This document shows positions 7,907-35,634 of a stretch of DNA of 64,000 nt, in pieces. Made by a program: the position numbers and the translations under genes. The DNA is taken from NCBI RefSeq assembly GCF_003334785.1, contig NZ_QOWV01000008.1; one strand, 5' to 3'. The notes beneath the pieces are model-generated. The model searched no databases, was not told where the DNA came from, and was given only the letters and a program-made list of their open reading frames with translations. The stretch is from Escherichia coli. GTDB lineage: Bacteria; Pseudomonadota; Gammaproteobacteria; Enterobacterales; Enterobacteriaceae. How positions within the stretch are numbered: the stretch's first letter is position 1; every line of letters starts with the position of its first letter.

Positions 7907-10015
7907 TTAATTTCGGTTTCGGGTGACTTTAATCACGTCTGGCATCACGCGGATTTTGCGCATGATATTCGCCAGATGCACACGGTCACGAGCGGTCAGA
8001 CGAATAAAGGCGCTGTAGACGCGACCATCTTTCTCTTCCGTATTCAAACTTTGAATATTCGAGGTCGTGGTGTTAATTGCCGCCGTCAGGTTTGCCAGCG
8101 CACCCTGATGATTGAACATCTCCACCTTGATTTCGGTGATGAATTCCTGCGCCGTCTCTTTATCCCATTCCACAGCCATAAACTTCTCTGGCTCTTTCTG
8201 GTAGCCACGGATGTTACGGCAGGATTCATGGTGGATCACCAGACCTTTACCGGGGCTGACGTGGGCGATAATCGGGTCGCCAGGAATAGGGCGGCAGCAT
8301 TTCGCAAAGGTGATCAGCACGCCATCGGCACCTTTAATTGGCAGATGTCCGTGACTTTGGGTTGCCGGTGGAATGGAGGCGTCCCCATGTTGTAGATTTT
8401 TCGCGACCACCACGCTCATTGCGTTACCAAGGCCGATTTCAGCCAGCAGATCGTCAAGCGTTGCCAGCTTCATGCGATCCAGCTCGCGCTGAATATTTTC
8501 CTGCGGGATTTCATTCAGCTTACGGCTACCACCCAAAGCATGGTTGAGCAGACGACGGCCCAGGCTTACAGAATCATCACGCTTGAGGTTTTTCAGCAAC
8601 TGACGAATTTTGGCGCGCGCTTTTGAGCTAACGACAAAGTTCAGCCACGCGGCATTCGGGCGAGCGCCCGGTGCGGTAATGATTTCAACGGTTTGACCGC
8701 TGGTAAGCGGCTGCGACAGCGGGTAAGGCTGGCGGTCAACGCGTGCGCCCACGCAGGCATGACCGATATCGGTATGCACTGCATAAGCGAAGTCGACGGG
8801 CGTTGCACCGGCAGGCAGCTCGACAATGCGCCCTTCCGGTGTGAAAACGTAAATCTCATCCGGGAAGAGATCGGATTTAACGCTCTCGATAAATTCAAAC
8901 GAACTACCGGCGCTCTGTTGCAGCTCCAGCAGGCTTTGCATCCAGCGCTGGGCGCGGATTTGTGCGGTAGTACTGGTTTCGCCGTGCTCTTTATAAGCCC
9001 AGTGCGCGGCAACACCCATCTCCGCCATCTGATCCATATCTTCGGTACGGATCTGGACCTCAACCGGCACGCCGTGCGGGCCAATCATCGAGGTGTGCAA
9101 AGACTGATAGCCGTTCGCTTTTGGAATGGCGATATAGTCTTTCACGCGGCCCGGACGCGGCTTGTACAGGCTGTGCATCTGGCCCAGCACGCGATAACAG
9201 GTGTCAGAATCATTGACGATCACGCGGAAAGCGTAGATGTCCATGATTGAGTGAAAACGCTGCTCTTTGAGCACCATTTTGCAGTAAATCGAATAAAGAT
9301 GCTTTTCGCGACCACTGACGCGGCACGGTATTCCCGCTTCCTGCAAACGCCCTTCGATTTCAGAAAGAATCTTCTGGATCATCTCTTTACGGTTGCCGCG
9401 CGCGGCTTTCACCACTTCTTTGATTACGCGATAACGGTTGGGATACAGCGCCTCAAAACCCAGCTCTTCGAGTTCGGTTTTAATGTGGTGGATACCTAAA
9501 CGGTGCGCCAGCGGGCTGTAAATTTCGAGAGTTTCACGGGCGATGCGGCGACGTTTGTCCGGGCGAAGTGAGCCCAGCGTGCGCATGTTGTGGGTACGGT
9601 CGGCAAGTTTGATGAGGATGACGCGGATATCCTGCACCATCGCCATAATCATCTTGCGAAAGTTTTCGGCCTGCGCCTCTTTCTTATCGCGGAACTTGAG
9701 TTTATCAAGTTTCGACACCCCCTCTACCAGCTCGGCGACGCTTTTACCAAAAAGCTGTTCCATATCCTGGTAGGTGGCGGGAGTATCTTCAATCACGTCA
9801 TGCAGCAGCGCCGCCATCAGCGTTTCATAGTCGAGTTTCATCTCGGCCAGAATGCAGGCAACCGCTACCGGGTGCGTGATATAGGGTTCACCGCTTGAAC
9901 GTGTTTGCCCCTCGTGAGCATCACGTGCAACGAGATACGCCTGCCGCAGACGCTTGATTTGGTCTTCCGGCAGGTAGGTTTGAATCAGTTGATTCAGGCT
10001 TTCAAACAGATACAA
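7907..10015 (-). CDS. spoT: Bifunctional (p)ppGpp synthetase/hydrolase SpoT
   Basis: 702 aa with HD domain; start codon is TTG (minus strand 10015..10013). Confidence 0.95.
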   Translation of the reverse strand: MYLFESLNQLIQTYLPEDQIKRLRQAYLVARDAHEGQTRSSGEPYITHPVAVACILAEMKLDYETLMAALLHDVIEDTPATYQDMEQLFGKSVAELVEGVSKLDKLKFRDKKEAQAENFRKMIMAMVQDIRVILIKLADRTHNMRTLGSLRPDKRRRIARETLEIYSPLAHRLGIHHIKTELEELGFEALYPNRYRVIKEVVKAARGNRKEMIQKILSEIEGRLQEAGIPCRVSGREKHLYSIYCKMVLKEQRFHSIMDIYAFRVIVNDSDTCYRVLGQMHSLYKPRPGRVKDYIAIPKANGYQSLHTSMIGPHGVPVEVQIRTEDMDQMAEMGVAAHWAYKEHGETSTTAQIRAQRWMQSLLELQQSAGSSFEFIESVKSDLFPDEIYVFTPEGRIVELPAGATPVDFAYAVHTDIGHACVGARVDRQPYPLSQPLTSGQTVEIITAPGARPNAAWLNFVVSSKARAKIRQLLKNLKRDDSVSLGRRLLNHALGGSRKLNEIPQENIQRELDRMKLATLDDLLAEIGLGNAMSVVVAKNLQHGDASIPPATQSHGHLPIKGADGVLITFAKCCRPIPGDPIIAHVSPGKGLVIHHESCRNIRGYQKEPEKFMAVEWDKETAQEFITEIKVEMFNHQGALANLTAAINTTTSNIQSLNTEEKDGRVYSAFIRLTARDRVHLANIMRKIRVMPDVIKVTRNRN

Positions 10016-13832: not shown

Positions 13833-14657
13833 CTATTTCTTCTCTGTAATTTTTACACTGTTTTCCAACTGCTTGATGCTGACCTGCGGGGTCGGCAACT
13901 CCTCAGGCATGGTTCCGCCAAGTTCCTGAATGGTTTGCATCACCTTGCTACCCACGTCAAAGTGTGTGGTATTAGCTTGCTGTTTTGAATTCACGCCATC
14001 CCGCTTGAGTTTTTCTTCTGTTTGGGTAGCTCGAAAGAGATTAGCCGCCAGTTCTGTTGAACCCATATGATCCAGGATCTTCTGATTCTTTTTCAGCCCC
14101 TTCCGCTGATGAATAGCTTTCTGATCTAATCCACCATACAGCCCCTGGTAACCATGATTCTGAAATATGGCGAAATCAGTAGCTGTCGCTACCCCAGCTT
14201 GCTGTGCTGCCTCAACCAATTGTTTGTTATGTTCTTTCAACTCATTTCTCAGAAACAGACGCTTTTCGTCTTCACGAAGTTGCTTAAATGCTTCATCGTC
14301 AGCAAGCTCCTGCCGTCGGGTCTGGATAGCAAAATAAGTCTGCCCTGCCGCAATGACCGGTTTCGCAGGGTCGCCGTTTTGTACTACCAGGTAACAGGCA
14401 TAGCGGGAGAGTACGATGTCTTTTAATGCTCTTTTGGCATTTGAGCCAATTTTGACCATATCGAGGATCTCCTCGAAATGGTCATCAATTGTGTGACCAC
14501 TGTTCTCACAGGCTTCTTTGGCGCGCGTTAATACAGGTATAAAGTGACGATACTCTGAATAACCCAGTAGTTTCCCAAGTTGTCTTGCTGACCATTGTTC
14601 TGCTCCGTTTGCATTAATCAGTTTTATCTCTTCAAAAGGTTGATGATGTTCGTTCAT
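13833..14657 (-). CDS. dinD: DNA damage-inducible protein D
   Basis: 274 aa from MNEHHQPFEEIK; LexA box immediately upstream. Confidence 0.85.
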   Translation of the reverse strand: MNEHHQPFEEIKLINANGAEQWSARQLGKLLGYSEYRHFIPVLTRAKEACENSGHTIDDHFEEILDMVKIGSNAKRALKDIVLSRYACYLVVQNGDPAKPVIAAGQTYFAIQTRRQELADDEAFKQLREDEKRLFLRNELKEHNKQLVEAAQQAGVATATDFAIFQNHGYQGLYGGLDQKAIHQRKGLKKNQKILDHMGSTELAANLFRATQTEEKLKRDGVNSKQQANTTHFDVGSKVMQTIQELGGTMPEELPTPQVSIKQLENSVKITEKK

Positions 14658-14703
14658 TGCCCACTCCATGTGATATCAATTGCAAAGAAAGTAAATCTGT
14701 AAC

Positions 14704-14719
14704 TGTATTTATATACAGT
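14704..14719. promoter_or_regulatory. LexA operator (SOS box) upstream of dinD
   Basis: CTGTATTTATATACAG fits CTGT-N8-ACAG, about 45 bp upstream of the dinD start. Confidence 0.7.
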
Positions 14720-14878
14720 TGTGAGTATCTCACGTTCTCAGTGTGCTGGGCAAAAAAACATCGCAAAATCTGGAGCAGGCACGAAAAACAGAATTGAAAG
14801 TTGCGGGGAAGAAAAATGCCGCTCTGTTTGAGTGGGCGGCATTTGTGAAGGCTGAAAAGTAAGAATTGGCGTTACGAG

Positions 14879-23878: not shown

Positions 23879-24225
23879 AATAAATAGCTGACTTATGGAT
23901 GTGCTGGGGATTCTATGTATTTAGCACCGGGTTTGCCATTACTTTTCCTTTTTTTGACTTAATTAGCCTCTGTTTGAGCTGATCTGCCGCTAGATCTTCA
24001 TTTTTTTTGTATTTTTATGCGATTCATTGAATTTCAGCCAGGATTGCAGCTTTACATCGACAATATCTGGATTCTCGAGTATGCAAAATTTTATCTCTAT
24101 GATTTTTATAATTAAAACATATTTTGTGTATAAAAATCATTCGGGTCGGATTGCTGCGAAAGAAATGATACACTAGCGCGTCAAAGTAAGTGCGTTATCA
24201 GTATTCGGGTAGCTGTTGAGCCTGG

Positions 24226-24237
24226 GGCGGTAGCGTG
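24226..24237 (+). promoter_or_regulatory. ops element (RfaH recruitment site) in JUMPstart leader of the waaQ operon
   Basis: Exact GGCGGTAGCGTG in the long leader, about 85 bp upstream of waaQ. Confidence 0.7.
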
Positions 24238-24320
24238 CTTTTTTCTGCTTAACTTAACCAGACAATCACACAAAAGAGTCGCTAGTGGAAAAGCCATTTC
24301 GAAAAATCCTGGTCATAAAG

Positions 24321-25355
24321 ATGCGATATCACGGAGATATGTTATTAACTACTCCTGTAATCAGTACACTCAAGCAGAATTATCCCGACGCAAAAATCGA
24401 TATGCTGCTTTACCAGGATACAATTCCGATTTTATCTGAAAACCCAGAAATTAATGCACTCTATGGTATAAGCAATAAAGGTACGGGAACATTCGATAAA
24501 ATTAAAAATGCACTTTCACTGATAAAAACTCTGCGTGCGAATAATTACGACCTGGTCATTAATCTTACGGATCAGTGGATGGTGGCCCTGCTGGTACGTT
24601 GTTTACCTGCTCGTATGAAAATATCGCAGCTTTATGGTCATCGGCAGCATGGCATTTGGAAAAAAAGCTTTACACACTTAGCGCCTATACACGGTACACA
24701 TATTGTTGAGCGTAATTTGTCGGTCCTTGAGCCATTAGGTATTACCGATTTTTATACTGAAACAACCATGAGTTACGCCGAGGATTGCTGGAAGAAAATG
24801 CGCCAGGAATTAGATGCACTGGGCGTGAAAGATCATTATGTCGTCATCCAGCCGACAGCCAGACAGATATTTAAGTGCTGGGACAACGATAAATTTTCTA
24901 TGGTTATCGATGCGTTGCAACATCGTGGTTATCAGGTTGTGCTGACTTGTGGCCCTTCGGCAGATGATCTCGCTTGCGTAGATGAAATTGCACGAGGCTG
25001 CCAAACAAAACCTATTACCGGCCTTGCCGGTAAAACACGTTTTCCTGAACTGGGCGCATTAATTGATCATGCAGTGCTCTTTATTGGTGTGGATTCTGCG
25101 CCGGGGCATATTGCAGCGGCTGTGAAGACGCCAGTTATTAGCCTGTTTGGGGCCACTGATCATGTATTCTGGCGTCCATGGACCGAGAATATTATTCAGT
25201 TCTGGGCGGGGAATTATCAAAAAATGCCTACCCGGCACGAACTTGACCGCAACAAAAAATATCTTTCTGTTATTCCAGCGGAAGATGTCATTGCCGCTAC
25301 GGAAAAGCTGTTGCCAGAAGATGCACCTTCAGCTGACAGGAATGCGCAATTATGA
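24321..25355 (+). CDS. waaQ: LPS core heptosyltransferase III
   Basis: GT9-like protein; start at MRYHGDML (344 aa); an upstream in-frame GTG at 24285 is possible. Confidence 0.8.
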   Translation: MRYHGDMLLTTPVISTLKQNYPDAKIDMLLYQDTIPILSENPEINALYGISNKGTGTFDKIKNALSLIKTLRANNYDLVINLTDQWMVALLVRCLPARMKISQLYGHRQHGIWKKSFTHLAPIHGTHIVERNLSVLEPLGITDFYTETTMSYAEDCWKKMRQELDALGVKDHYVVIQPTARQIFKCWDNDKFSMVIDALQHRGYQVVLTCGPSADDLACVDEIARGCQTKPITGLAGKTRFPELGALIDHAVLFIGVDSAPGHIAAAVKTPVISLFGATDHVFWRPWTENIIQFWAGNYQKMPTRHELDRNKKYLSVIPAEDVIAATEKLLPEDAPSADRNAQL

Positions 25356-26476
25356 TCGTGGCATTTTGCTTATATAAATATTTTCCATTTGGTGGGCTAC
25401 AGCGTGACTTTATGCGTATTGCCTCAACAGTTGCCGCACGGGGCCACCATGTTCGGGTATATACACAGTCGTGGGAAGGCGATTGCCCGGAAGCATTTGA
25501 GCTTATTCGCGTACCGGTTAAATCCCATACTAACCATGGACGTAATGCAGAATATTATGCCTGGGTTCAAAACCATCTGAAGGCACATCCCGCTGATCGC
25601 GTTGTTGGCTTTAATAAGATGCCTGGGCTGGATGTTTATTTTGCCGCCGATGTCTGTTATGCCGAGAAAGTGGCGCAAGAAAAGGGATTTTTCTATCGTT
25701 TAACATCGCGCTATCGCCATTATGCTGCATTCGAGCGAGCGACTTTCGAACATGGTAAATCGACGAAACTTATGATGTTGACCGATAAGCAAATCGCCGA
25801 TTTTCAGAAGCATTACCAAACTGAACCAGAACGTTTTCAAATTCTTCCCCCTGGTATCTATCCTGACAGAAAATACAACGCGCAAATCCCAAACAGTCGT
25901 GAAATTTATCGCCAGAAAAATGGCATCACTGAACAACAAAACTTATTGCTGCAGGTTGGTTCAGATTTTGGTCGTAAAGGTGTGGATCGCTCAATTGAAG
26001 CTTTGGCATCGTTACCAGAATCGTTACGCCATAATACGTTGTTGTTTGTTGTTGGCCAGGATAAACCGCGTAAATTTGAAGTGCTGGCAGAAAAACTCGG
26101 TGTGCGTAGTAAAGTGCATTTCTTTTCCGGGCGGAATGATGTGTCTGAATTAATGGCAGCCGCTGATTTATTAATGCATCCCGCTTATCAGGAGGCTGCA
26201 GGTATTGTTCTCCTTGAGGCAATTGCCGCGGGATTACCTGTGTTGACGACTGCGGTATGCGGATACGCACACTATATCACAGATGCTAATTGTGGAACGG
26301 TCATCGCTGAACCTTTCTCCCAGGAACAATTAAATGACGTTTTACGTAAAGCGTTAACTCAATCTCCATTGCGCATGGCCTGGGCGGAGAATGCTCGGTA
26401 TTACGCCGATACTCAGGATTTATACAGCCTGCCGGAGAAAGCGGCAGATATCATTACAGGTGGTTTAGATGGTTGA
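25352..26476 (+). CDS. waaG: LPS core glucosyltransferase I (GT4)
   Basis: 374 aa [20 protein letters not shown]...; ATGA overlap with waaQ stop. Confidence 0.9.
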
Positions 26477-27266
26477 ATTAGAAGAGCCACTTGCCACACT
26501 CTGGCGTGGTAAAGATGCCTTTGCAGAAGTTAAAAAACTGAATGGCGAGGTCTTCCGTGAACTGGAGACGCGTCGCACATTACGCTTTGAACTGGCCGGC
26601 AAAAGTTATTTCCTCAAATGGCACAAAGGGACGACCCTAAAGGAGATTATAAAAAATCTGCTCTCATTGCGGATGCCCGTTTTAGGTGCAGACAGAGAGT
26701 GGCACGCTATTCATCGACTGCATGATGTCGGTGTTGATACGATGCACGGAATAGGATTTGGTGAAAAAGGGTTAAATCCATTAACTCGCACATCATTTAT
26801 TATTACCGAAGATCTCACTCCCACAATTAGCCTTGAAGATTATTGTGCAGATTGGGCGGTCAACCCGCCTGATGTACATATTAAGCGTATGCTGATCGCG
26901 CGTGTGGCAACCATGGTGCGCAAAATGCATGCAGCAGGGATTAATCACCGTGATTGTTATATCTGCCACTTTTTACTCCATTTGCCATTTACTGGCCGGG
27001 AAGATGAATTAAAAATTTCGGTTATCGATCTGCACCGGGCACAGATACGTGCAAAAGTACCACGTCGTTGGCGGGATAAAGATTTGATTGGTTTATATTT
27101 CTCATCAATGAATATTGGTCTGACGCAGAGAGATATCTGGCGATTTATGAAGGTTTATTTTGGGATGCCTTTACGCGATATTTATAGACTTGAGATTGAT
27201 TTACTTAAAAAGGCAAGGATTAAAGCAGGAAAAATAGAAGCAAGAACAATAAGAAAAAACTTGTAA
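26469..27266 (+). CDS. waaP: LPS core heptose(I) kinase
   Basis: 265 aa; kinase-like [13 protein letters not shown]. Confidence 0.9.
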
Positions 27267-27298
27267 ATAGTATTTTATTACAAAAAGGGATTCTAAAA

Positions 27299-28279
27299 TT
27301 GTTGAAATATAGAAACTTCGTTGCTAAGAAGAAAAATTTATACCAAAACGAAGTGTCGTATGTTAAAAATTTACATATTGCACTATGCTTTGACCGTGAA
27401 TTCATAATGCCAGCGGGTGTTGCATTATATTCAATTATATCCAACAATAGACATATTAACCTTCATTTTCACCTTCTTATATCAGGCATAGAAGAAAAGG
27501 AGTGTTCAGCTTTTTACGAACTAGAAGGTCCTAATACATCAATATCTGTATATTATATAACTGATAAATTTGACATTAATCCGGATACATTAGTTCTTGG
27601 TATTCCTTTATCAACATGTTTACGTTTTTTAATCCCAGAAGTTATTGATGATAAAATAAATAAGATACTTTATCTTGACTGTGATGTCATATGTAATGGT
27701 CCTTTAGATGAACTGGTTGATTATAATTTAAATGCTGATATTGCATGTGTAATTCCAGATTCGCCAGAAATGCAAGAACGTGTAAAAAAATTAGACTATG
27801 GCATTGAGTTTATTAATTATTTTAATGCCGGGGTTATGTTTATTAATACCAGCGAATGGAAAAAAAATAATATAACACAAAAAGCGTTAGAAATGATCAA
27901 CAGTGGAAAAGTATATAGGTATGCAGATCAGGATGTGCTCAATATTTTACTTAATGGACGAGTGCATTACCTTGATAAGAAGTACAATAATAAGACAACA
28001 TTGTCAGTACGATGTGATGAAGAACAAAAAAACTTGCCCAACACAATTATAATGCATTATGTTACCCAGAATAAACCATGGTACAAAATATTTAGAGCAC
28101 AAAATTTTGATCATTATTTTTCAAATTCTCCTTGGAAGAACCATAAAAGAAATCTAGCTCCATCATCAAGTGAGATTAGGTTAAAGTCTAAAGTTTTTTG
28201 GCTAGAAGGAAAATATTGTAAAGCCATTTCTTATTATTATAAGTATTTACTTGTTAAATTATTTGGCTTAAAGATTTAG
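27299..28279 (+). CDS. GT8-family (retaining) glycosyltransferase at the waaS position of the core operon
   Basis: 326 aa; LDCDVICNG (DxD) and HYVTQNKPW motifs shared with waaO/waaJ paralogs; symbol left blank because only position, not sequence, suggests waaS. Confidence 0.55.
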   Translation: MLKYRNFVAKKKNLYQNEVSYVKNLHIALCFDREFIMPAGVALYSIISNNRHINLHFHLLISGIEEKECSAFYELEGPNTSISVYYITDKFDINPDTLVLGIPLSTCLRFLIPEVIDDKINKILYLDCDVICNGPLDELVDYNLNADIACVIPDSPEMQERVKKLDYGIEFINYFNAGVMFINTSEWKKNNITQKALEMINSGKVYRYADQDVLNILLNGRVHYLDKKYNNKTTLSVRCDEEQKNLPNTIIMHYVTQNKPWYKIFRAQNFDHYFSNSPWKNHKRNLAPSSSEIRLKSKVFWLEGKYCKAISYYYKYLLVKLFGLKI

Positions 28280-28292
28280 CTGGAATGAAATT

Positions 28293-29372
28293 ATGAAAAT
28301 AGCCTTTATTGGCGAAGCTGTTTCTGGATTTGGCGGCATGGAAACAGTCATTCGTGATGTTATTACTACCTTCAGGCAACAACATATCCAAAGTGAAATT
28401 TTTTTCTTTTGTCGTAATGACAAAATGGATAAGGGATGGCTGGAAGGTATTAAGTACTCGTGTTCATTTTCCAATATTCGCTTAGGTTTTTTGCGTCGCG
28501 CGAAACATATTCATGCTTTAAGCAAATGGCTTCATGATTATCAGCCAGATGTTGTTATTTGTATTGACGTGATCTCGTGTTTGTATGCGGCCAAAGCTCG
28601 TAAAAAATCGGGGATTGATGTACCTGTATTTTCATGGCCGCATTTTTCTTTAGATCATAAAAAACATGCCGAATATATCACCTGTGCCGACTATCATTTA
28701 GCCATCAGCTCTGGTATTAAACAGCAAATGATTAGCCGGGGTGTACCAGAATCGACAATAAACGTTATTTTTAATCCCGTTGAGGCGAAAAATTCAGTCA
28801 TTCCTGCACCCGGGGAAGGCGAAACGGCAACATTCATTTATGTTGGGCGCATGAAATTTGAAGGCCAAAAGCGCGTAAAAGATCTGCTTGATGGCTTATC
28901 ACAAGTGCAAGGTGACTGGAAACTTCATGTATTGGGAGATGGCTCCGATTTCGAAAAATGCCAGGCTTATGGTAGAGGATTAAATATTGATGATCGAATT
29001 GTCTGGTATGGTTGGCAACAACATCCCTGGAAATTAGTTCAGCAAGATATTAAAAAAGTGAGTGCATTATTACTCACGTCATCTTTTGAAGGTTTCCCAA
29101 TGACTCTACTTGAAGCCTTGTCGTGGGGGATCCCTTGTATCAGTGCAGATTGTGTCTCCGGGCCTGTTGATATCATTCAGCCTGATGTTAATGGTCATTT
29201 ATATCAACCGGGGGATATGACCGGTTTTGTTGCTCTTCTCAATAAATACATAGCCGGTGAAATTCACATCGCACATGAAAAAATTCCGGCGTCGATCGAT
29301 AAATTTTATCAACCGAAATATTACGACAGATTGCAAAAGATAATTATTTCTGTTATTTCCCGGAGGAAATAA
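28293..29372 (+). CDS. waaB: LPS core alpha-1,6-galactosyltransferase (GT4)
   Basis: 359 aa MKIAFIGEAVSGFGGMETVI...; E-x7-E motif. Confidence 0.85.
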   Translation: MKIAFIGEAVSGFGGMETVIRDVITTFRQQHIQSEIFFFCRNDKMDKGWLEGIKYSCSFSNIRLGFLRRAKHIHALSKWLHDYQPDVVICIDVISCLYAAKARKKSGIDVPVFSWPHFSLDHKKHAEYITCADYHLAISSGIKQQMISRGVPESTINVIFNPVEAKNSVIPAPGEGETATFIYVGRMKFEGQKRVKDLLDGLSQVQGDWKLHVLGDGSDFEKCQAYGRGLNIDDRIVWYGWQQHPWKLVQQDIKKVSALLLTSSFEGFPMTLLEALSWGIPCISADCVSGPVDIIQPDVNGHLYQPGDMTGFVALLNKYIAGEIHIAHEKIPASIDKFYQPKYYDRLQKIIISVISRRK

Positions 29373-30391
29373 TGCAGCAGGTTTTTTTCCAGGAGACTGA
29401 GTTTCTCAATTCGGTTATTGATTATAATCATAAAATAGAAGCAGAAAATCTTTGTCTGGATATTGCTTATGGGACTGACAAAAATTTTCTTTTTGGATGC
29501 GGAATATCGATTGCTTCAATATTAAAATATAATGAAGGAAATCAATTATGCTTTCATATTTTTACTGATTATTTCGGTGATGACGATCGCAAATATTTTG
29601 ATGCCCTGGCCAGGCAATATAAAACAAGAATTAAGATATATTTAATTAATGGTGATCGACTCCGTTCATTACCCTGCACCAAGAACTGGACTCATGCTAT
29701 TTATTTTCGTTTTGTTATCGCCGATTACTTTTTTAATAAAGCACCCAAAGTTCTTTATCTGGATGCAGATATTATTTGTCAGGGAACTATAGAACCACTT
29801 ATCAATTACACGTTTTCTGAACATACAGTCGCAATGGTTGTTACAGAAGGACAAAAAGACTGGTGGGCAAAACGTGCTCATTCGTTAGGTGTTGCTGGGA
29901 TTGCTAATGGTTACTTTAACTCCGGTTTTTTACTGATTAATACTAATCAATGGACGAATGAGCGGGTTTCTGCACGGGCCATTGCAATGTTAAGTGATCC
30001 AGAGATAGTCAAAAAAATAACACATCCTGATCAGGATGTATTAAATATGTTATTGGCAGACAAACTTGTTTATGCTGATATTAAATATAACACTCAGTTT
30101 AGTTTAAATTATCAACTAAAAGAAAGTTTTAAAAACCCAGTAACTAACGATACAGTTTTTATTCATTATATTGGTCCAACTAAACCCTGGCATGACTGGG
30201 CCTGGGATTATCCAATATCACAAGCTTTTATGGCGGCAAAAAATGCTTCACCATGGAAGGATACTGCGTTATTGAAACCGGTTAATAGTAATCAATTAAG
30301 ATACAGTGCTAAACATATGTTGAAAAAAAAGCAATATATCAAAGGATTTGGCAACTATCTTTTGTATTTTATAAAAAAGCTAAAGCATTAA
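29372..30391 (+). CDS. waaO: LPS core alpha-1,3-glucosyltransferase (GT8)
   Basis: 339 aa; LDADIICQG DxD and HYIGPTKPW motifs. Confidence 0.8.
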   Translation: MQQVFFQETEFLNSVIDYNHKIEAENLCLDIAYGTDKNFLFGCGISIASILKYNEGNQLCFHIFTDYFGDDDRKYFDALARQYKTRIKIYLINGDRLRSLPCTKNWTHAIYFRFVIADYFFNKAPKVLYLDADIICQGTIEPLINYTFSEHTVAMVVTEGQKDWWAKRAHSLGVAGIANGYFNSGFLLINTNQWTNERVSARAIAMLSDPEIVKKITHPDQDVLNMLLADKLVYADIKYNTQFSLNYQLKESFKNPVTNDTVFIHYIGPTKPWHDWAWDYPISQAFMAAKNASPWKDTALLKPVNSNQLRYSAKHMLKKKQYIKGFGNYLLYFIKKLKH

Positions 30392-30554
30392 TACTGATAA
30401 TCTATACTCTAAATAATTCGAGTTGCAGGACAAAAAGCCAGTGGCGTTTTGAGGAACGCTTGCGTTGGCCCTGAAATGCCGAGTAACTCGCCGATGCAGC
30501 ACATGCAACTTGAAGTATAACGAGTATATAAAGTAATGATATAAGGATAGCCTT

Positions 30555-31571
30555 GTGAACTCATTTCCTGCCATAGAGATAGATAAAGTTAAAGCCTGGG
30601 ATTTTAGGCTTATTGATGAAAATACTGCTGAAAGTTTAAATGTTGCCTATGGTGTCGATTCCAATTATCTTGATGGTGTAGGTGTTTCCATTACTTCAAT
30701 TGTCATTAATAATCGACATGTTAATCTTGATTTTTATATTATTGCTGATGTTTATAACGACGATTTCTTTCAAAAAGTTGAGAAACTTGCTGAGCAATAC
30801 CAATTAAGAATCACACTTTATAGAATAAATACTGATAATCTTCAGTGCCTGCCTTGTACACAAGTCTGGTCAAGAGCAATGTACTTCCGTTTATTTGCTT
30901 TTCAATTATTGGGAGTAACACTTAATCGTTTGCTTTATCTTGATGCCGATGTAGTTTGTAAGGGAAATATTAGTCAACTATTGCATTTAGAGTTTAATGG
31001 AGCGGTGGCTGCAGTAGTCAGGGATGTAGACCCAATGCAGGAAAAGGCGGTAGTCAGATTATCTGATCCTGAACTTCGGGGGCAGTATTTTAATTCTGGT
31101 GTCGTTTACTTAGACCTAAAAAAATGGACAGAAGCAAAACTAACCGAAAAAGCACTGTCTATTCTTATGAGTAAAGATAGTATTTATAAGTATCCTGACC
31201 AGGACGTTATGAATGTCCTACTAAAAGGGATGACAATATTCCTGCCACGTGAGTTCAATACTATATATACAATAAAAAGTGAGTTAAAAGATAAAACGCA
31301 TCAAAAATATAAAGAGTTGATAAAAGAGGATACTCTTCTTATTCATTATACTGGGGCCACCAAGCCGTGGCACAAATGGGCAATTTATCCATCGGTAAAA
31401 TACTATAAAATAGCTTTAGAAAGATCCCCCTGGAAAGATGACTCACCACGAGATGCAAAATCAATTATTGAATTCAAAAAAAGATATAAACATCTGTTAG
31501 TGCAACATCATTATATCTCAGGACTCATTGCAGGAGTGTGTTATCTTTGCCGAAAATATTACCGTAAATAA
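30555..31571 (+). CDS. waaJ: LPS core alpha-1,2-glucosyltransferase (GT8; WaaJ/WaaR)
   Basis: 338 aa; GTG start; LDADVVCKG and HYTGATKPW motifs. Confidence 0.8.
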   Translation: MNSFPAIEIDKVKAWDFRLIDENTAESLNVAYGVDSNYLDGVGVSITSIVINNRHVNLDFYIIADVYNDDFFQKVEKLAEQYQLRITLYRINTDNLQCLPCTQVWSRAMYFRLFAFQLLGVTLNRLLYLDADVVCKGNISQLLHLEFNGAVAAVVRDVDPMQEKAVVRLSDPELRGQYFNSGVVYLDLKKWTEAKLTEKALSILMSKDSIYKYPDQDVMNVLLKGMTIFLPREFNTIYTIKSELKDKTHQKYKELIKEDTLLIHYTGATKPWHKWAIYPSVKYYKIALERSPWKDDSPRDAKSIIEFKKRYKHLLVQHHYISGLIAGVCYLCRKYYRK

Positions 31572-31588
31572 CATTTAACTGGTTTAAC

Positions 31589-32287
31589 ATGATTCAGAAG
31601 AATAAAATCAAAGATTTAGTTGTTTTTACCGATGAAAATAACTCAAAGTATCTCAATGTATTAAATGACTTTCTTTCTTATGATATTAATATCATCAAAG
31701 TTTTTCGTTCTATAGATGATACAAAAGTCATGCTTATTGATACCGATTACGGTAAATTGATACTTAAAGTTTTTTCGCCTAAAGTAAAACGCAACGAACG
31801 TTTCTTTAAATCTCTTTTAAAGGGAGATTATTATGAACGCCTTTTTGAGCATACTCAAAAAGTGCGTAACGAGGGGCTACATTCTCTCAATGATTTTTAT
31901 TTGTTGGCAGAACGGAAAACATTACGTTTTGTCCATACTTATATCATGCTTATCGAATATATCGATGGCGTAGAGTTGTGTGATATCCCCGATATTGATG
32001 AAACTTTAAAAAATAAAATTCAACAATCAATTCGTTCATTACACGAACACGGTATGGTATCTGGTGATCCTCACCGCGGTAATTTTATTATTGAAAATGG
32101 TGAAGTACGCATTATTGATCTTTCAGGAAAACGGGCATCTGCACAACGTAAAGCGAAAGATCGTATTGATTTAGAGCGACATTATGGTATTAAGAATGAG
32201 GTTAAAGATCTCGGTTATTATCTTTTAGTTTATCGTAAAAAAATACGTAATCTTATGCGGCGTTTGAAAGGGAAGCCAGCACGATAA
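31589..32287 (+). CDS. waaY: LPS core heptose(II) kinase
   Basis: 232 aa MIQKNKIKDLVVFTDENNSKY... Confidence 0.85.
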   Translation: MIQKNKIKDLVVFTDENNSKYLNVLNDFLSYDINIIKVFRSIDDTKVMLIDTDYGKLILKVFSPKVKRNERFFKSLLKGDYYERLFEHTQKVRNEGLHSLNDFYLLAERKTLRFVHTYIMLIEYIDGVELCDIPDIDETLKNKIQQSIRSLHEHGMVSGDPHRGNFIIENGEVRIIDLSGKRASAQRKAKDRIDLERHYGIKNEVKDLGYYLLVYRKKIRNLMRRLKGKPAR

Positions 32288-32358
32288 AGTAAAAGTCTTA
32301 CATTTAAACGTCTTCGTCAGGACATTTCTATGCGGAGTTCTTATTTCACAGGTTTATC

Positions 32359-33168
32359 ATGAAGAATATTAGATACATTGACAAAAAAGATGTTGAAAAC
32401 CTGATAGAAAGTAAAACGTCTGATGATGTTATTATTTTTCTTTCCGGCCCCACATCGCAAAAAACACCATTGTCAGTGCTGCAGACAAGGGATGTTATTG
32501 CTGTCAATGGTTCTGCACAATATCTATTAAGTCATAATATTATTCCCTATATTTATGTACTTACCGATGTTCGCTTTTTACATCAACGGCGTGATGATTT
32601 TTATAAATTTAGCCAGAGAAGTCGTTATACCATCGTAAATGTTGACGTTTATGAACATGCTTCTGAAGAAGATAAGCGGTACATCCTTCAAAACTGCCTG
32701 GTACTACGTTCATTTTACCGCAGAGAAAAAGGTGGATTGATCAAGAAGATCAAGTTTAATATTTTGAGCCGAATTCATAAAGAGCTCCTGATCTCTGTAC
32801 CTTTTTCTAAAAAAGGTCGTCTGGTTGGCTTTTGCAAGGATATTAACCTCGGTTATTGTTCATGCCATACCGTTGCTTTTGCTGCAATCCAAATAGCCTA
32901 TTCGCTGAAGTATGCTCGTATTATCTGTTCAGGCCTTGATTTAACGGGTAGCTGTTCGCGTTTCTATGATGAAGATAAGAATCCTATGCCCTCAGAGTTG
33001 ATTCGGGATTTATTCAAAATTTTACCATTTTTCCGTTTTATGCGTGAAAATATAGAAGATATCAATATTTATAATTTATCCGACGATACTGCAATTCAAT
33101 ATGATATTATTCCCTATATGAAAATATCCGAAATTGAAGAGCCGTGTGTTTATGAAAAAATAAGCTAA
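32359..33168 (+). CDS. waaZ: LPS core biosynthesis protein WaaZ
   Basis: 269 aa maximum (in-frame stop at 32305 prevents a longer N-terminus). Confidence 0.75.
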   Translation: MKNIRYIDKKDVENLIESKTSDDVIIFLSGPTSQKTPLSVLQTRDVIAVNGSAQYLLSHNIIPYIYVLTDVRFLHQRRDDFYKFSQRSRYTIVNVDVYEHASEEDKRYILQNCLVLRSFYRREKGGLIKKIKFNILSRIHKELLISVPFSKKGRLVGFCKDINLGYCSCHTVAFAAIQIAYSLKYARIICSGLDLTGSCSRFYDEDKNPMPSELIRDLFKILPFFRFMRENIEDINIYNLSDDTAIQYDIIPYMKISEIEEPCVYEKIS

Positions 33169-33220
33169 TATTTTATATGTGTTTATTACGTGTTATAAAT
33201 TATATTGGAGTTGGCTAATA

Positions 33221-34363
33221 ATGATTAAAAAAATAATATTTACCGTCACACCAATATTTTCTATACCGCCAAAAGGAGCTGCAGCGGTTGAAACATGGAT
33301 TTATCAGGTCGCAAAAAGACTTTCGATTCCAGTAACTATCGCCTGTATTCGAAACGAAGGTTACCCAACCTACACAAAAGTAAATGATCACTGTGATATT
33401 CACTACATTGGTTTTAGTCGAGTCTATAAACGACTTTTCCAAAAGTGGACTCGACTTGATCCTGTGCCATATTCTCAGCGTATTTTAAATACCCAACCTA
33501 AAAACACTGATCCGAAAGACTCTGTTATTGTTATCCACAATAGCATGAAGCTGTATAAACAGATTCGTAGCAGAAGCCCTCACGCGCAGCTAGTTATGCA
33601 TCTTCATAATGCTTTCGAGCCAGGTGAGTTAGACAAAAATGCAAAGATAATTGTTCCTAGCCAGTTTCTTTTCGATTTCTATTCGGAAAAAATGCCTGAT
33701 GCAAATATTGCTATTGTGCCTAATGGTTTTTGTTCTGAATCGTATGAACAAAATAATACTGAAGATTTGAGGCAGAAACTGAACATTGATGCAAATGATA
33801 CCGTGTTATTATTTGCAGGAAGGATATCACCAGATAAAGGTTGCCTGATGCTTATGGAGGCTTTTAATCAGCTGAATAAGATACAAGATAACCTCAAACT
33901 GGTGATTGTCGGAGATCCTTTTGCCAGTAAAAAAGGCGAAAAAGCTGAATATCAGAAAAAAGTTCTGGATGCAGCGAAAGCTATTGGAGCGCAATGCATT
34001 ATGGCGGGTGGACAGCCTCCAGAGCAGATGCATAACTATTACCGTTTAGCAGATTTAGTTGTTGTTCCTTCTCAGGTAGAAGAAGCTTTTTGTATGGTAG
34101 CTGTTGAAGCGATGGCGGCAGGTAAACCAGTGCTTGCCAGTCAAAAAGGTGGAATTAGTGAGTTTGTTCTGGAAGGAATTACAGGCTATCACCTTGCAGA
34201 GCCTATGACATCTGAAAGTATTCTCGCGGATATTAAGCGCGTTTTGGCGGATGCTGACAGAGCTCAAATTGCTAAAAATGCCCGAAATTTTGTTTTCTCA
34301 AAATATAGCTGGGAACATGTTACTCAGCGTTTTGAAGCACAAATACAAGACTGGTTTGGTTAA
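33221..34363 (+). CDS. waaK: LPS outer-core GT4 glycosyltransferase, WaaK-like
   Basis: About 380 aa from MIKKIIFTVTP; E-x7-E motif; an upstream ATG at 33179 is possible. Confidence 0.7.
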   Translation: MIKKIIFTVTPIFSIPPKGAAAVETWIYQVAKRLSIPVTIACIRNEGYPTYTKVNDHCDIHYIGFSRVYKRLFQKWTRLDPVPYSQRILNTQPKNTDPKDSVIVIHNSMKLYKQIRSRSPHAQLVMHLHNAFEPGELDKNAKIIVPSQFLFDFYSEKMPDANIAIVPNGFCSESYEQNNTEDLRQKLNIDANDTVLLFAGRISPDKGCLMLMEAFNQLNKIQDNLKLVIVGDPFASKKGEKAEYQKKVLDAAKAIGAQCIMAGGQPPEQMHNYYRLADLVVVPSQVEEAFCMVAVEAMAAGKPVLASQKGGISEFVLEGITGYHLAEPMTSESILADIKRVLADADRAQIAKNARNFVFSKYSWEHVTQRFEAQIQDWFG

Positions 34364-34382
34364 AAATTATTGGATTTGAAGA

Positions 34383-34418
34383 GCCTGCCTGAACTTAATG
34401 TCAGGCAGGCTTTTTTTT
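34383..34418. terminator. Bidirectional terminator between convergent waaK and waaL
   Basis: 11-bp perfect stem gcctgcctga / tcaggcaggc followed by T8; waaL stop codon lies inside the T tract. Confidence 0.6.
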
Positions 34419-35634
34419 ATTTATTCCGCATTGCTAACAGTAAACCAACAATCAAGCCAATTGGTTTGAGATCAACTTCCTCGAAGTTACCTCGAATAAT
34501 ATAAAAGCTTACAAGCGTTAAAAATAGTAGTAATTGACCATTATAAGGAGTGACGACAACTGTTTTAAACGTTGCATTAGCTGTCTCTTTGATAATAGAG
34601 CCATACAGATAAAGTAAAGCGAGTAGTCCAGCCAAACCCGCTGCAAACCAAATTGACAAAACAACGTTGTGTGGCCCAATGGATTGCCTGAACTTCCATG
34701 ACGGAAAATCTACAACACGCTTATTATATATTGCATGGTAAATATCATCGCCGTAGCCATATCCCTTAAGAGGATTTTCCATAATTAATGTCCACGCCGT
34801 ACCTTGAGTACCATTGGTATAGCGATAAGAACTGTCGGTCTGTTGAAGTTTATAAATAAGCCTGTCTTTACCAGCATGATCACCTTTATAGGTAAATACA
34901 CCCACTGCGGCAACAGAAATAACGATGGAAGTCAGCATCAATAATTTCCACTGACGATTTAAGATTAACCATAGCAGAGTCACTATGAATACTGCCAGCC
35001 ATGCACCACGAGACAGCGTTCCTAATAGCAGAAATAAGAAAACTGCACTAAAAATTACGAATGCTATTTTATAAGAGGTTTTCTTGATAAGCCAAAGGTT
35101 TAATAATGCTGGAAACAGAAACACCATTGAATCGGAAATACTACGGTGTTCATAGGTGGAAAATGGCATTATTCCTTTATTATAATCCTGAATATAAAGA
35201 ATAAGTTCAACAAGACAACGTAAGCCAAGTCCGGTAACTAATGAGTATAGTACAATTTTACCAATGCTTTCATTATCTTCATCTTTTAATAATGCAGGTA
35301 TAAGTAAACTATAGGCCAAAAATCCTTTAAGTACCGTATTACTGAATTCTTTAAAACTGATTTTCAGATCAGGTGATATAAAAGTAGCATATAAAAGAAT
35401 GAGTGATAGTGCCAGGACACTATAAAAAAGATTATTTTTATAGAGTACTTTAAATGTTCCCGGAGCACGAGAAACTTGATAGATTACCGTAATAATCATT
35501 AGTATAGATATGATGTGTTTATAACGGGTTATACCATCAAGGAAAAAGGTTGCAATAAAGAGGAATACCAACGCTTTATTCCAGTACGGTTTCCACTTTT
35601 CTTTATTACGTAGCGCCAGCGAGGCTGTTAACAT
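34417..35634 (-). CDS. waaL: O-antigen ligase
   Basis: 405 aa polytopic membrane protein starting MLTASLALRNKEKWKPYWNKALVF. Confidence 0.85.
   Translation of the reverse strand: MLTASLALRNKEKWKPYWNKALVFLFIATFFLDGITRYKHIISILMIITVIYQVSRAPGTFKVLYKNNLFYSVLALSLILLYATFISPDLKISFKEFSNTVLKGFLAYSLLIPALLKDEDNESIGKIVLYSLVTGLGLRCLVELILYIQDYNKGIMPFSTYEHRSISDSMVFLFPALLNLWLIKKTSYKIAFVIFSAVFLFLLLGTLSRGAWLAVFIVTLLWLILNRQWKLLMLTSIVISVAAVGVFTYKGDHAGKDRLIYKLQQTDSSYRYTNGTQGTAWTLIMENPLKGYGYGDDIYHAIYNKRVVDFPSWKFRQSIGPHNVVLSIWFAAGLAGLLALLYLYGSIIKETANATFKTVVVTPYNGQLLLFLTLVSFYIIRGNFEEVDLKPIGLIVGLLLAMRNK

Follow-up and report, generated by a model that had tools for sequence, protein, structure and literature searches.

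Between waaP and waaB, in the lipopolysaccharide (LPS) core operon, Escherichia coli K-12 carries waaS, the product of which is described in the literature as a rhamnosyltransferase that adds rhamnose to KdoII or KdoIII. The gene found in this position in the R2 core type is called wabA in a core-typing study (PMC13293308), the supplement of which lists the R2 gene order as waaQ, waaG, waaP, wabA, waaB, waaO and waaR; on function, this study says that wabA 'could' introduce additional modifications and nothing further. A full-text literature search for wabA retrieved only this 2025 typing paper and its preprint, with no sugar assigned to WabA, leaving wabA among the last genes of the E. coli waa operon without an assigned reaction in the literature found. 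The published R2 core consists of Glc3, Gal, GlcNAc, Hep3 and Kdo with every residue assigned, and the R2 core oligosaccharide released by acid gives mass spectra limited to Glc3-GlcNAc-Gal-Hep3-Kdo glycoforms, in which the acid-stable part bears no additional hexose.

The window analysed here is a 64,000-nucleotide stretch of an E. coli contig (NZ_QOWV01000008.1, assembly GCF_003334785.1), in which the open reading frame (ORF) list places the waa region at 24285-35634 (Table 1). An earlier note on this DNA had described a glycosyltransferase family 8 (GT8) gene between waaP and waaB, and NCBIfam equivalog matches for both neighbours confirm that position. The locus is of the R2 type and not the K-12 type, because its distal end consists of waaK and a Salmonella-like waaL, where K-12 ends in waaU. 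As in the R2 core type (reference strains F632 and ECOR11), the gene occupies the waaP-waaB slot of a waaQ operon that ends in waaZ-waaK, with the Salmonella-like waaL adjoining; judged by this slot and by the R2 gene order of PMC13293308, it is wabA. The waaQ leader of the wabA-containing operon carries a JUMPstart element, the control region expected for RfaH-dependent expression. No terminator-like site was found in a scan of the flanks of wabA (26900-28500), and a promoter scan returned fewer sigma-70-like sites than shuffled sequences, giving no sign of a separate wabA transcription unit. Given the JUMPstart element and the absence of a flanking terminator-like site, wabA is taken to belong to the waaQ operon and would be co-transcribed with its other genes. 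The name wabA is reportedly traced to Heinrichs, Whitfield and colleagues in 1998, and the gene is an already named, ordinary allele of its core type and not a new system.

Table 1. Features of the waa region in the window, with the source of each assignment.
Feature	Position	Strand	Basis or remark
JUMPstart element, waaQ leader	24199-24237	+	Rfam RF01707, 53 bits, E = 4.9e-10
waaQ	24285-25355	+	ORF list
waaG	25352-26476	+	ORF list
waaP (HepI kinase), upstream neighbour	26469-27266	+	NCBIfam NF011703 RfaP, 460 bits; 3' end inside the cassette
wabA cassette: last ~90 nt (~30 codons) of waaP, wabA and spacer	27177-28291	+	blastn against K-12
Shine-Dalgarno-like AAGGG	27285-27289	+	Sequence; 9 nt 5' of the wabA TTG
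wabA (target ORF)	27299-28279	+	ORF list; RefSeq ML35; Pfam GT8 and GT8C
DxD motif D127-C128-D129, predicted Mn2+/UDP-sugar binding	27677-27685	+	Aligns with LgtC D103-x-D105; invariant, 34 homologues
D210-Q211-D212, GT8 sugar-binding/catalytic-centre motif	27926-27934	+	Aligns with LgtC D188-Q189-D190 region; invariant
H253-Y-V-T-Q-N-K259-P-W261, predicted metal-binding His and phosphate-binding Lys	28055-28081	+	Alignments
C-terminal GT8C region	28097-28258	+	Glyco_transf_8C (PF08437), 6.5e-6, residues 267-320
waaB (alpha-1,6-galactosyltransferase), downstream neighbour	28293-29372	+	NCBIfam NF007396, 593 bits; starts 13 nt past wabA
waaO	29372-30391	+	NCBIfam NF011718 equivalog, 572 bits
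waaJ/R	30555-31571	+	ORF list
waaY	31589-32287	+	NCBIfam RfaY equivalog
waaZ (KdoIII transferase)	32359-33168	+	NCBIfam equivalog
waaK (LPS GlcNAc transferase)	33179-34363	+	NCBIfam, 724 bits
waaL	3' of waaK; then waaC, waaF, hldD	- (waaL)	ORF list

Of 5426 complete E. coli genomes, 503 carry wabA (at least 99% identity in 485, 95-99% in one and 90-95% in 17), in agreement with the 8.15% R2 frequency of PMC13293308, and waaS is found at the same site in 1031. The near-identity of the gene across the 485 genomes, which have the R2 arrangement, lends indirect support to equating it with the wabA of the reference strain F632. Wherever present in the 503 genomes, wabA is single-copy, chromosomal and full length; copies are 100% identical in hundreds of genomes, and a 1-nt length difference occurs in one of the 60 matches listed. 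The earlier note had considered that the gene might prove to be the ordinary waaS allele of K-12 or R2. It is indeed the ordinary allele of its core type, but R2 carries wabA and not waaS in this slot (PMC13293308 supplement).

The wabA ORF is intact, with 326 codons and a stop codon after a TTG start, and a gene with identical coordinates is annotated by RefSeq in strain ML35. The TTG is favoured over Met37 as the start, since the N-terminal strand (residues 8-16) packs into the domain in the AF2 model. The database label, in ML35 as elsewhere, is 'glycosyltransferase family 8 protein'; one UniRef entry for the exact sequence bears the automatic name 'General stress protein A'. In ML35, an R2 laboratory strain, waaZ is annotated as frameshifted (14061-14844 of its extracted locus) and wabA is intact.

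A Glyco_transf_8 domain (PF01501, i-Evalue 1.6e-49) spans residues 26-263 of WabA and is followed by a GT8C region, which in the AF2 model comprises two basic/aromatic helices (residues 290-302 and 306-322). In WaaJ the GT8C tail lies at the membrane, and on this precedent the two helices of WabA are probably a membrane-interface anchor. Among 34 homologues, D127, D129, N176, D210, Q211, D212 and H253 do not vary and K259-P-W hardly does. The AF2 model (pLDDT 93.2) is a confident prediction of a GT-A fold, and its best PDB matches in Foldseek are WbbM and LgtC (E 1e-17 to 1e-15), with GlyE, LARGE1 and glycogenin also found. LgtC, a Neisseria alpha-1,4-galactosyltransferase (PDB 1GA8, 1G9R and 1SS9), is the best-characterised structural relative: it is matched by sequence (E ~6e-17) with the catalytic residues aligned, and by the predicted structure with a Foldseek E of ~1e-15 to 1e-16 and a TM of ~0.75 on target length. 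However, identity to LgtC is ~25%, the LgtC acceptor is the lactose of lipooligosaccharide and the enterobacterial GT8C tail is a feature of WabA. Judged by its profile, active-site motifs and predicted GT-A fold, WabA belongs to CAZy/Pfam family GT8.

BLASTP detected no similarity between WabA and K-12 WaaS (best E = 1.8). K-12 WaaS matches NCBIfam NF053598 (WaaS/CpsH family glycosyltransferase) with 179 bits and contains neither a GT8 domain nor any other significant Pfam domain, whereas the sole NCBIfam model matched by WabA is the GT8-type NF011718, NF053598 not being among its matches. The blastn alignment of the window with K-12 consists of blocks at 24001-27176 (90.7%) and 28292-30406 (88.3%), with the gap between them unmatched and homology restarting one base 5' of the waaB ATG. 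Since K-12 homology breaks at 27176 and returns at 28292, a 1.1-kb wabA cassette replaces the K-12 waaS cassette. The WaaP proteins of K-12 and R2 are 96% identical over residues 1-235 and 50% identical over the last 30 (236-265), and the WaaP tail of the hybrid strain LHM10-1 is R2-like (80%). Identity of WabA with WaaS is ruled out by the BLASTP result, the separate families and the lack of nucleotide homology across the cassette, and the suggestion that the protein is simply WaaS falls with it. Both cassettes are very AT-rich, with a GC content of 29.7% for wabA and 26.8% for waaS. WaaS resembles WabA in its slot, in the low GC content of its cassette (27% versus 30%), in being dispensable for the main core and in co-occurring with waaZ, but the two belong to unrelated families and share no sequence similarity; the donor of WaaS is presumably dTDP-Rha, whereas that of WabA would be a UDP-hexose.

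Within GT8, WabA was placed by multiple alignment and a neighbour-joining (NJ) tree with characterised members from the K-12, R1, R3 and Salmonella loci. BLASTP gave 28% identity to the neighbouring WaaO (E = 6e-36) and 29% to WaaJ/R (E = 5e-40), which, with the Pfam match and the presence of both motifs quoted in the earlier note (LDCDVICNG, residues 126-134, and HYVTQNKPW, residues 253-261), upholds its description of the protein as a GT8 paralogue of these two. Identity to WaaO and WaaJ/R over the multiple alignment is ~26%, and the comparison that had been proposed there, with WaaS, WaaO, WaaJ, WaaT and WaaW, gave 25-31% for the four GT8 proteins, a range that also holds for WaaI and WaaR. 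Three GT8 genes in one waa operon are not unusual, because R1 has WaaO, WaaT and WaaW.

WabA shares with WaaO/WaaI (HexII alpha-1,3), WaaJ/WaaR/WaaT (HexIII alpha-1,2) and WaaW the GT8 and GT8C domains, the DxD, DQD and H..KPW motifs, a similar length and a place in the same operon. In the NJ tree, however, the WabA orthologues form a clade of their own with GT8 proteins of Hafnia and Gilliamella, apart from both the HexII (WaaO/WaaI) and the HexIII/side-branch (WaaJ/R/T, WaaW) groups. Members of the WabA clade have CFD near the N-terminus, LDCD and HYVT[QP]NKPW where the main-chain core transferases have G-x-D, LDAD and HYxGxTKPW, and they carry a four-residue deletion following KPW relative to the core transferases. 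WabA scores 183.6 bits against the WaaO/WaaI equivalog NF011718 (LPS 3-alpha-hexosyltransferase), well below its cut-off of 461, and does not cluster with the HexIII alpha-1,2 enzymes WaaJ, WaaR and WaaT. A role as the main-chain HexII or HexIII transferase was rejected on the NF011718 score and the tree. The pI and charge of WabA did not discriminate it from WaaO, WaaJ, WaaS or WaaZ.

Orthologues located directly after waaP are found in a divergent E. coli-type locus (81% identity), in Citrobacter (63%), in Salmonella enterica subsp. salamae and serovar Infantis (61-66%) and in Pseudocitrobacter (60%; 9001-10005 of the extracted contig). In the Pseudocitrobacter-type cluster the order is waaQ-G-P-wabA-GT8-GT8-waaY-waaZ-GT9-waaL, with waaB absent; WabA is not tied to WaaB. 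The 'R2/K-12 hybrid' strain E. coli LHM10-1 has wabA 3' of waaP (92% identity at the amino-acid level), and its locus, on inspection, ends in waaU and a K-12-like waaL. The same 94%-identical allele occurs in 16 other complete genomes, for which the hybrid arrangement is read from the identity band. The slot that holds waaS or wabA and the distal waaK/waaU-waaL module are thereby shown to recombine independently.

The five orthologues compared in detail (three from E. coli and those of Citrobacter and Salmonella) all have 326 codons, show no indels and begin at the same codon, TTG or GTG. Pairwise dN/dS for wabA is 0.07-0.23, within the range for waaB and waaP from which the waaB value for the window against Citrobacter was excluded as nonsensical, probably owing to an alignment offset. 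These values imply that WabA is functional; from the sequence comparison, it appears to be a functional gene product under purifying selection and a dead paralogue is very unlikely. A pseudogene was rejected in view of the full length across genomes, the low dN/dS and the invariant catalytic residues.

Among the closest non-orthologous relatives, and in the same clade, are a prophage-associated GT8 of Hafnia paralvei (45% identity) and the Gilliamella GT8s (~44%). The Hafnia gene differs from wabA in lying outside the waa operon, at the end of a P2-like prophage beside tail-fibre genes. In H. paralvei CP014031 this gene (9001-9969 of the extracted locus) is flanked by an S24-peptidase repressor-like gene and by tail-fibre assembly/tail-fibre genes, and a related GT8 gene in a second locus (9001-10008) is found at this chromosomal site too, following a yejM-like gene and with no phage genes; the GT8s of these two loci are 45-47% identical to WabA. 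The prophage gene may be an LPS-modifying gene of lysogenic conversion. WabA itself has no phage-family match in PHROGs, and tblastn against phage records found only distant GT8s (<33%) and two Salmonella WGS contigs (AFYI01000003.1 and AGRM01000003.1) that are misfiled among those records. A wabA orthologue (61%), intact and flanked by waaP and waaB, is carried by the Infantis contig; in the S. houtenae contig the only matches are distant GT8 paralogues (32%), and some Salmonella are thus without wabA.

WabA is proposed to be a membrane-associated GT8 enzyme of the GT-A fold, acting at the cytoplasmic face of the inner membrane. From the chemistry of the family we infer a UDP-hexose (Gal or Glc) as donor and a retaining transfer that would give an alpha linkage; the acceptor would be the lipid A-core and the product a non-stoichiometric side branch outside the main outer-core chain. 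The R2 core, including its outer part (Glc3, Gal, GlcNAc), is explained by WaaG, WaaB, WaaO, WaaR/J and WaaK without WabA, in line with the argument of the earlier note that the outer core needs no third GT8. Because the core is complete without it, WabA would add something that is non-stoichiometric, condition-dependent or lost in analysis, and the extra substitution that had been suggested as one possibility is plausible. We hold with considerable confidence the overall reading that this is the wabA of the R2 slot and that it encodes an active GT8 adding a probably non-stoichiometric side-branch sugar.

The acceptor is narrowed by gene context. wabA is found with either distal end, waaK and a Salmonella-like waaL (the window and two further loci) or waaU and a K-12-like waaL (LHM10-1 and two further loci), which implies an acceptor outside the terminal outer core, in a part of the core shared by both; the presence of wabA without waaB in Pseudocitrobacter likewise implies that WabA does not require the WaaB-added Gal. 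The preferred acceptor would be the acid-labile Kdo side branch (KdoII/KdoIII), which would make WabA the functional counterpart of the unrelated WaaS. In favour of this acceptor, wabA fills precisely the position of waaS, the product of which decorates KdoII/KdoIII. Kdo in this branch is linked ketosidically, and any substituent that it carried would be lost in acid and missed in the published R2 spectra. Both alpha-Gal-(1->7)-Kdo and alpha-Gal-(1->2)-Hep are strain-variable motifs in Hafnia LPS (PMC6033962), and the former is counted in favour of a Kdo acceptor because Hafnia carries a mobile GT8 of the WabA clade. Finally, each of the seven wabA-bearing waa clusters examined contains waaZ. 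Against a link with waaZ, K-12 and many Salmonella carry waaZ without wabA, and ML35 keeps wabA beside its frameshifted waaZ; no waaZ was found within 9 kb of the Gilliamella homologues, and the association may be confounded by the shared ancestry of the K-12, R2 and Salmonella-type operons. R2 LPS may carry non-stoichiometric Gal on KdoII, although a literature search for Gal on Kdo in R2 LPS found no such statement; this Gal, if beta-linked, would not be the product of a retaining GT8. To our knowledge, the characterised relatives of WabA all act on outer-core hexoses and none on Kdo. That WabA is an alpha-hexosyltransferase, probably a galactosyltransferase, acting on the KdoII/KdoIII branch of the lipid A-core is therefore put forward as a tentative assignment.

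Ranked equal to the Kdo branch, and just as tentative, is an acceptor elsewhere in the core, either in its outer part or among the heptoses, to which WabA would add a non-stoichiometric alpha-hexose; GlcI, the WaaB-added Gal and HepIII are examples. This is suggested by the use of outer-core hexoses by all characterised GT8 core enzymes (the NF011718 family and the neighbouring genes), by the adjacency of wabA and waaB and by the Pseudocitrobacter homologue, which occupies the position of the absent waaB and might supply the GlcI side branch there. An extra hexose of this kind would, however, be expected on the acid-released R2 core, where the reported glycoforms contain none and the literature structure leaves no residue unassigned; its absence from the published spectra could reflect low or condition-dependent activity of WabA.

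The remaining alternatives are far less probable. A decaying or catalytically dead paralogue, retained by linkage to the operon, would account for the lack of a phenotype or product in the literature found, for a known R2 core that does without wabA and for Salmonella without the gene (the S. houtenae contig, with 32% paralogues only), but it is quite unlikely given an intact gene in 503 genomes, the dN/dS of 0.07-0.23 with no indels, the invariant catalytic residues and the confident fold prediction. The UniRef name 'General stress protein A' on the exact sequence and the inclusion in GT8 of protein glycosyltransferases such as GlyE could point to a target other than LPS, for example a protein or a different glycolipid. 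The position in the waaQ operon is nevertheless conserved in four genera, the GT8C tail is typical of LPS core transferases and the UniRef name is an automatic transfer and not evidence, so that such a target is highly improbable. Least probable of all, to the point of being already refuted, is that wabA is the R2 allele of waaS and encodes a rhamnosyltransferase; the shared operon position is outweighed by the E value of 1.8, the assignment to GT8 as against NF053598 and a cassette without nucleotide homology.

Because wabA is kept under purifying selection in ~9% of E. coli and in many Salmonella and Citrobacter, a hidden LPS glycoform is likely there. Decorations of the LPS inner core affect phage and colicin receptors, sensitivity to antimicrobial peptides, cross-reactive anti-core antibodies and lectin recognition, and knowledge of the WabA product would make the biosynthetic map of R2 complete and allow finer core typing, also of the 'R2/K-12 hybrids'. 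If the Kdo branch is the acceptor, waaS and wabA would be alternative 'Kdo-decoration cassettes' without homology to each other, and their recombination would be independent of the outer-core type. Since intact orthologues occur in many Salmonella, Citrobacter and Pseudocitrobacter, the Salmonella Ra core of the textbooks would in that case include an inner-core glycoform that varies between strains and has gone unrecognised. The phage-borne relatives in Hafnia would then apply the same chemistry to lysogenic conversion.

Two further features of the locus concern genes downstream of wabA. The ORF list starts waaK at a GTG (33179; 394 amino acids), while the RefSeq ML35 product has 380 amino acids and the alignment to the NCBIfam model begins at residue 15, so that the true start probably lies ~14 codons further downstream. 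The waaO stop and the waaJ/R start are separated by an insertion of ~120 bp (30407-30526) that neither K-12 nor the LHM10-1 hybrid has at this position. The insertion is a member of a family of small intergenic repeats that are bounded by terminal inverted repeats (AGTTGCAgg...caTGCAACT), match nothing in Rfam and are present at 1-7 sites per genome (median 2) in 5387 of the 5426 E. coli genomes.
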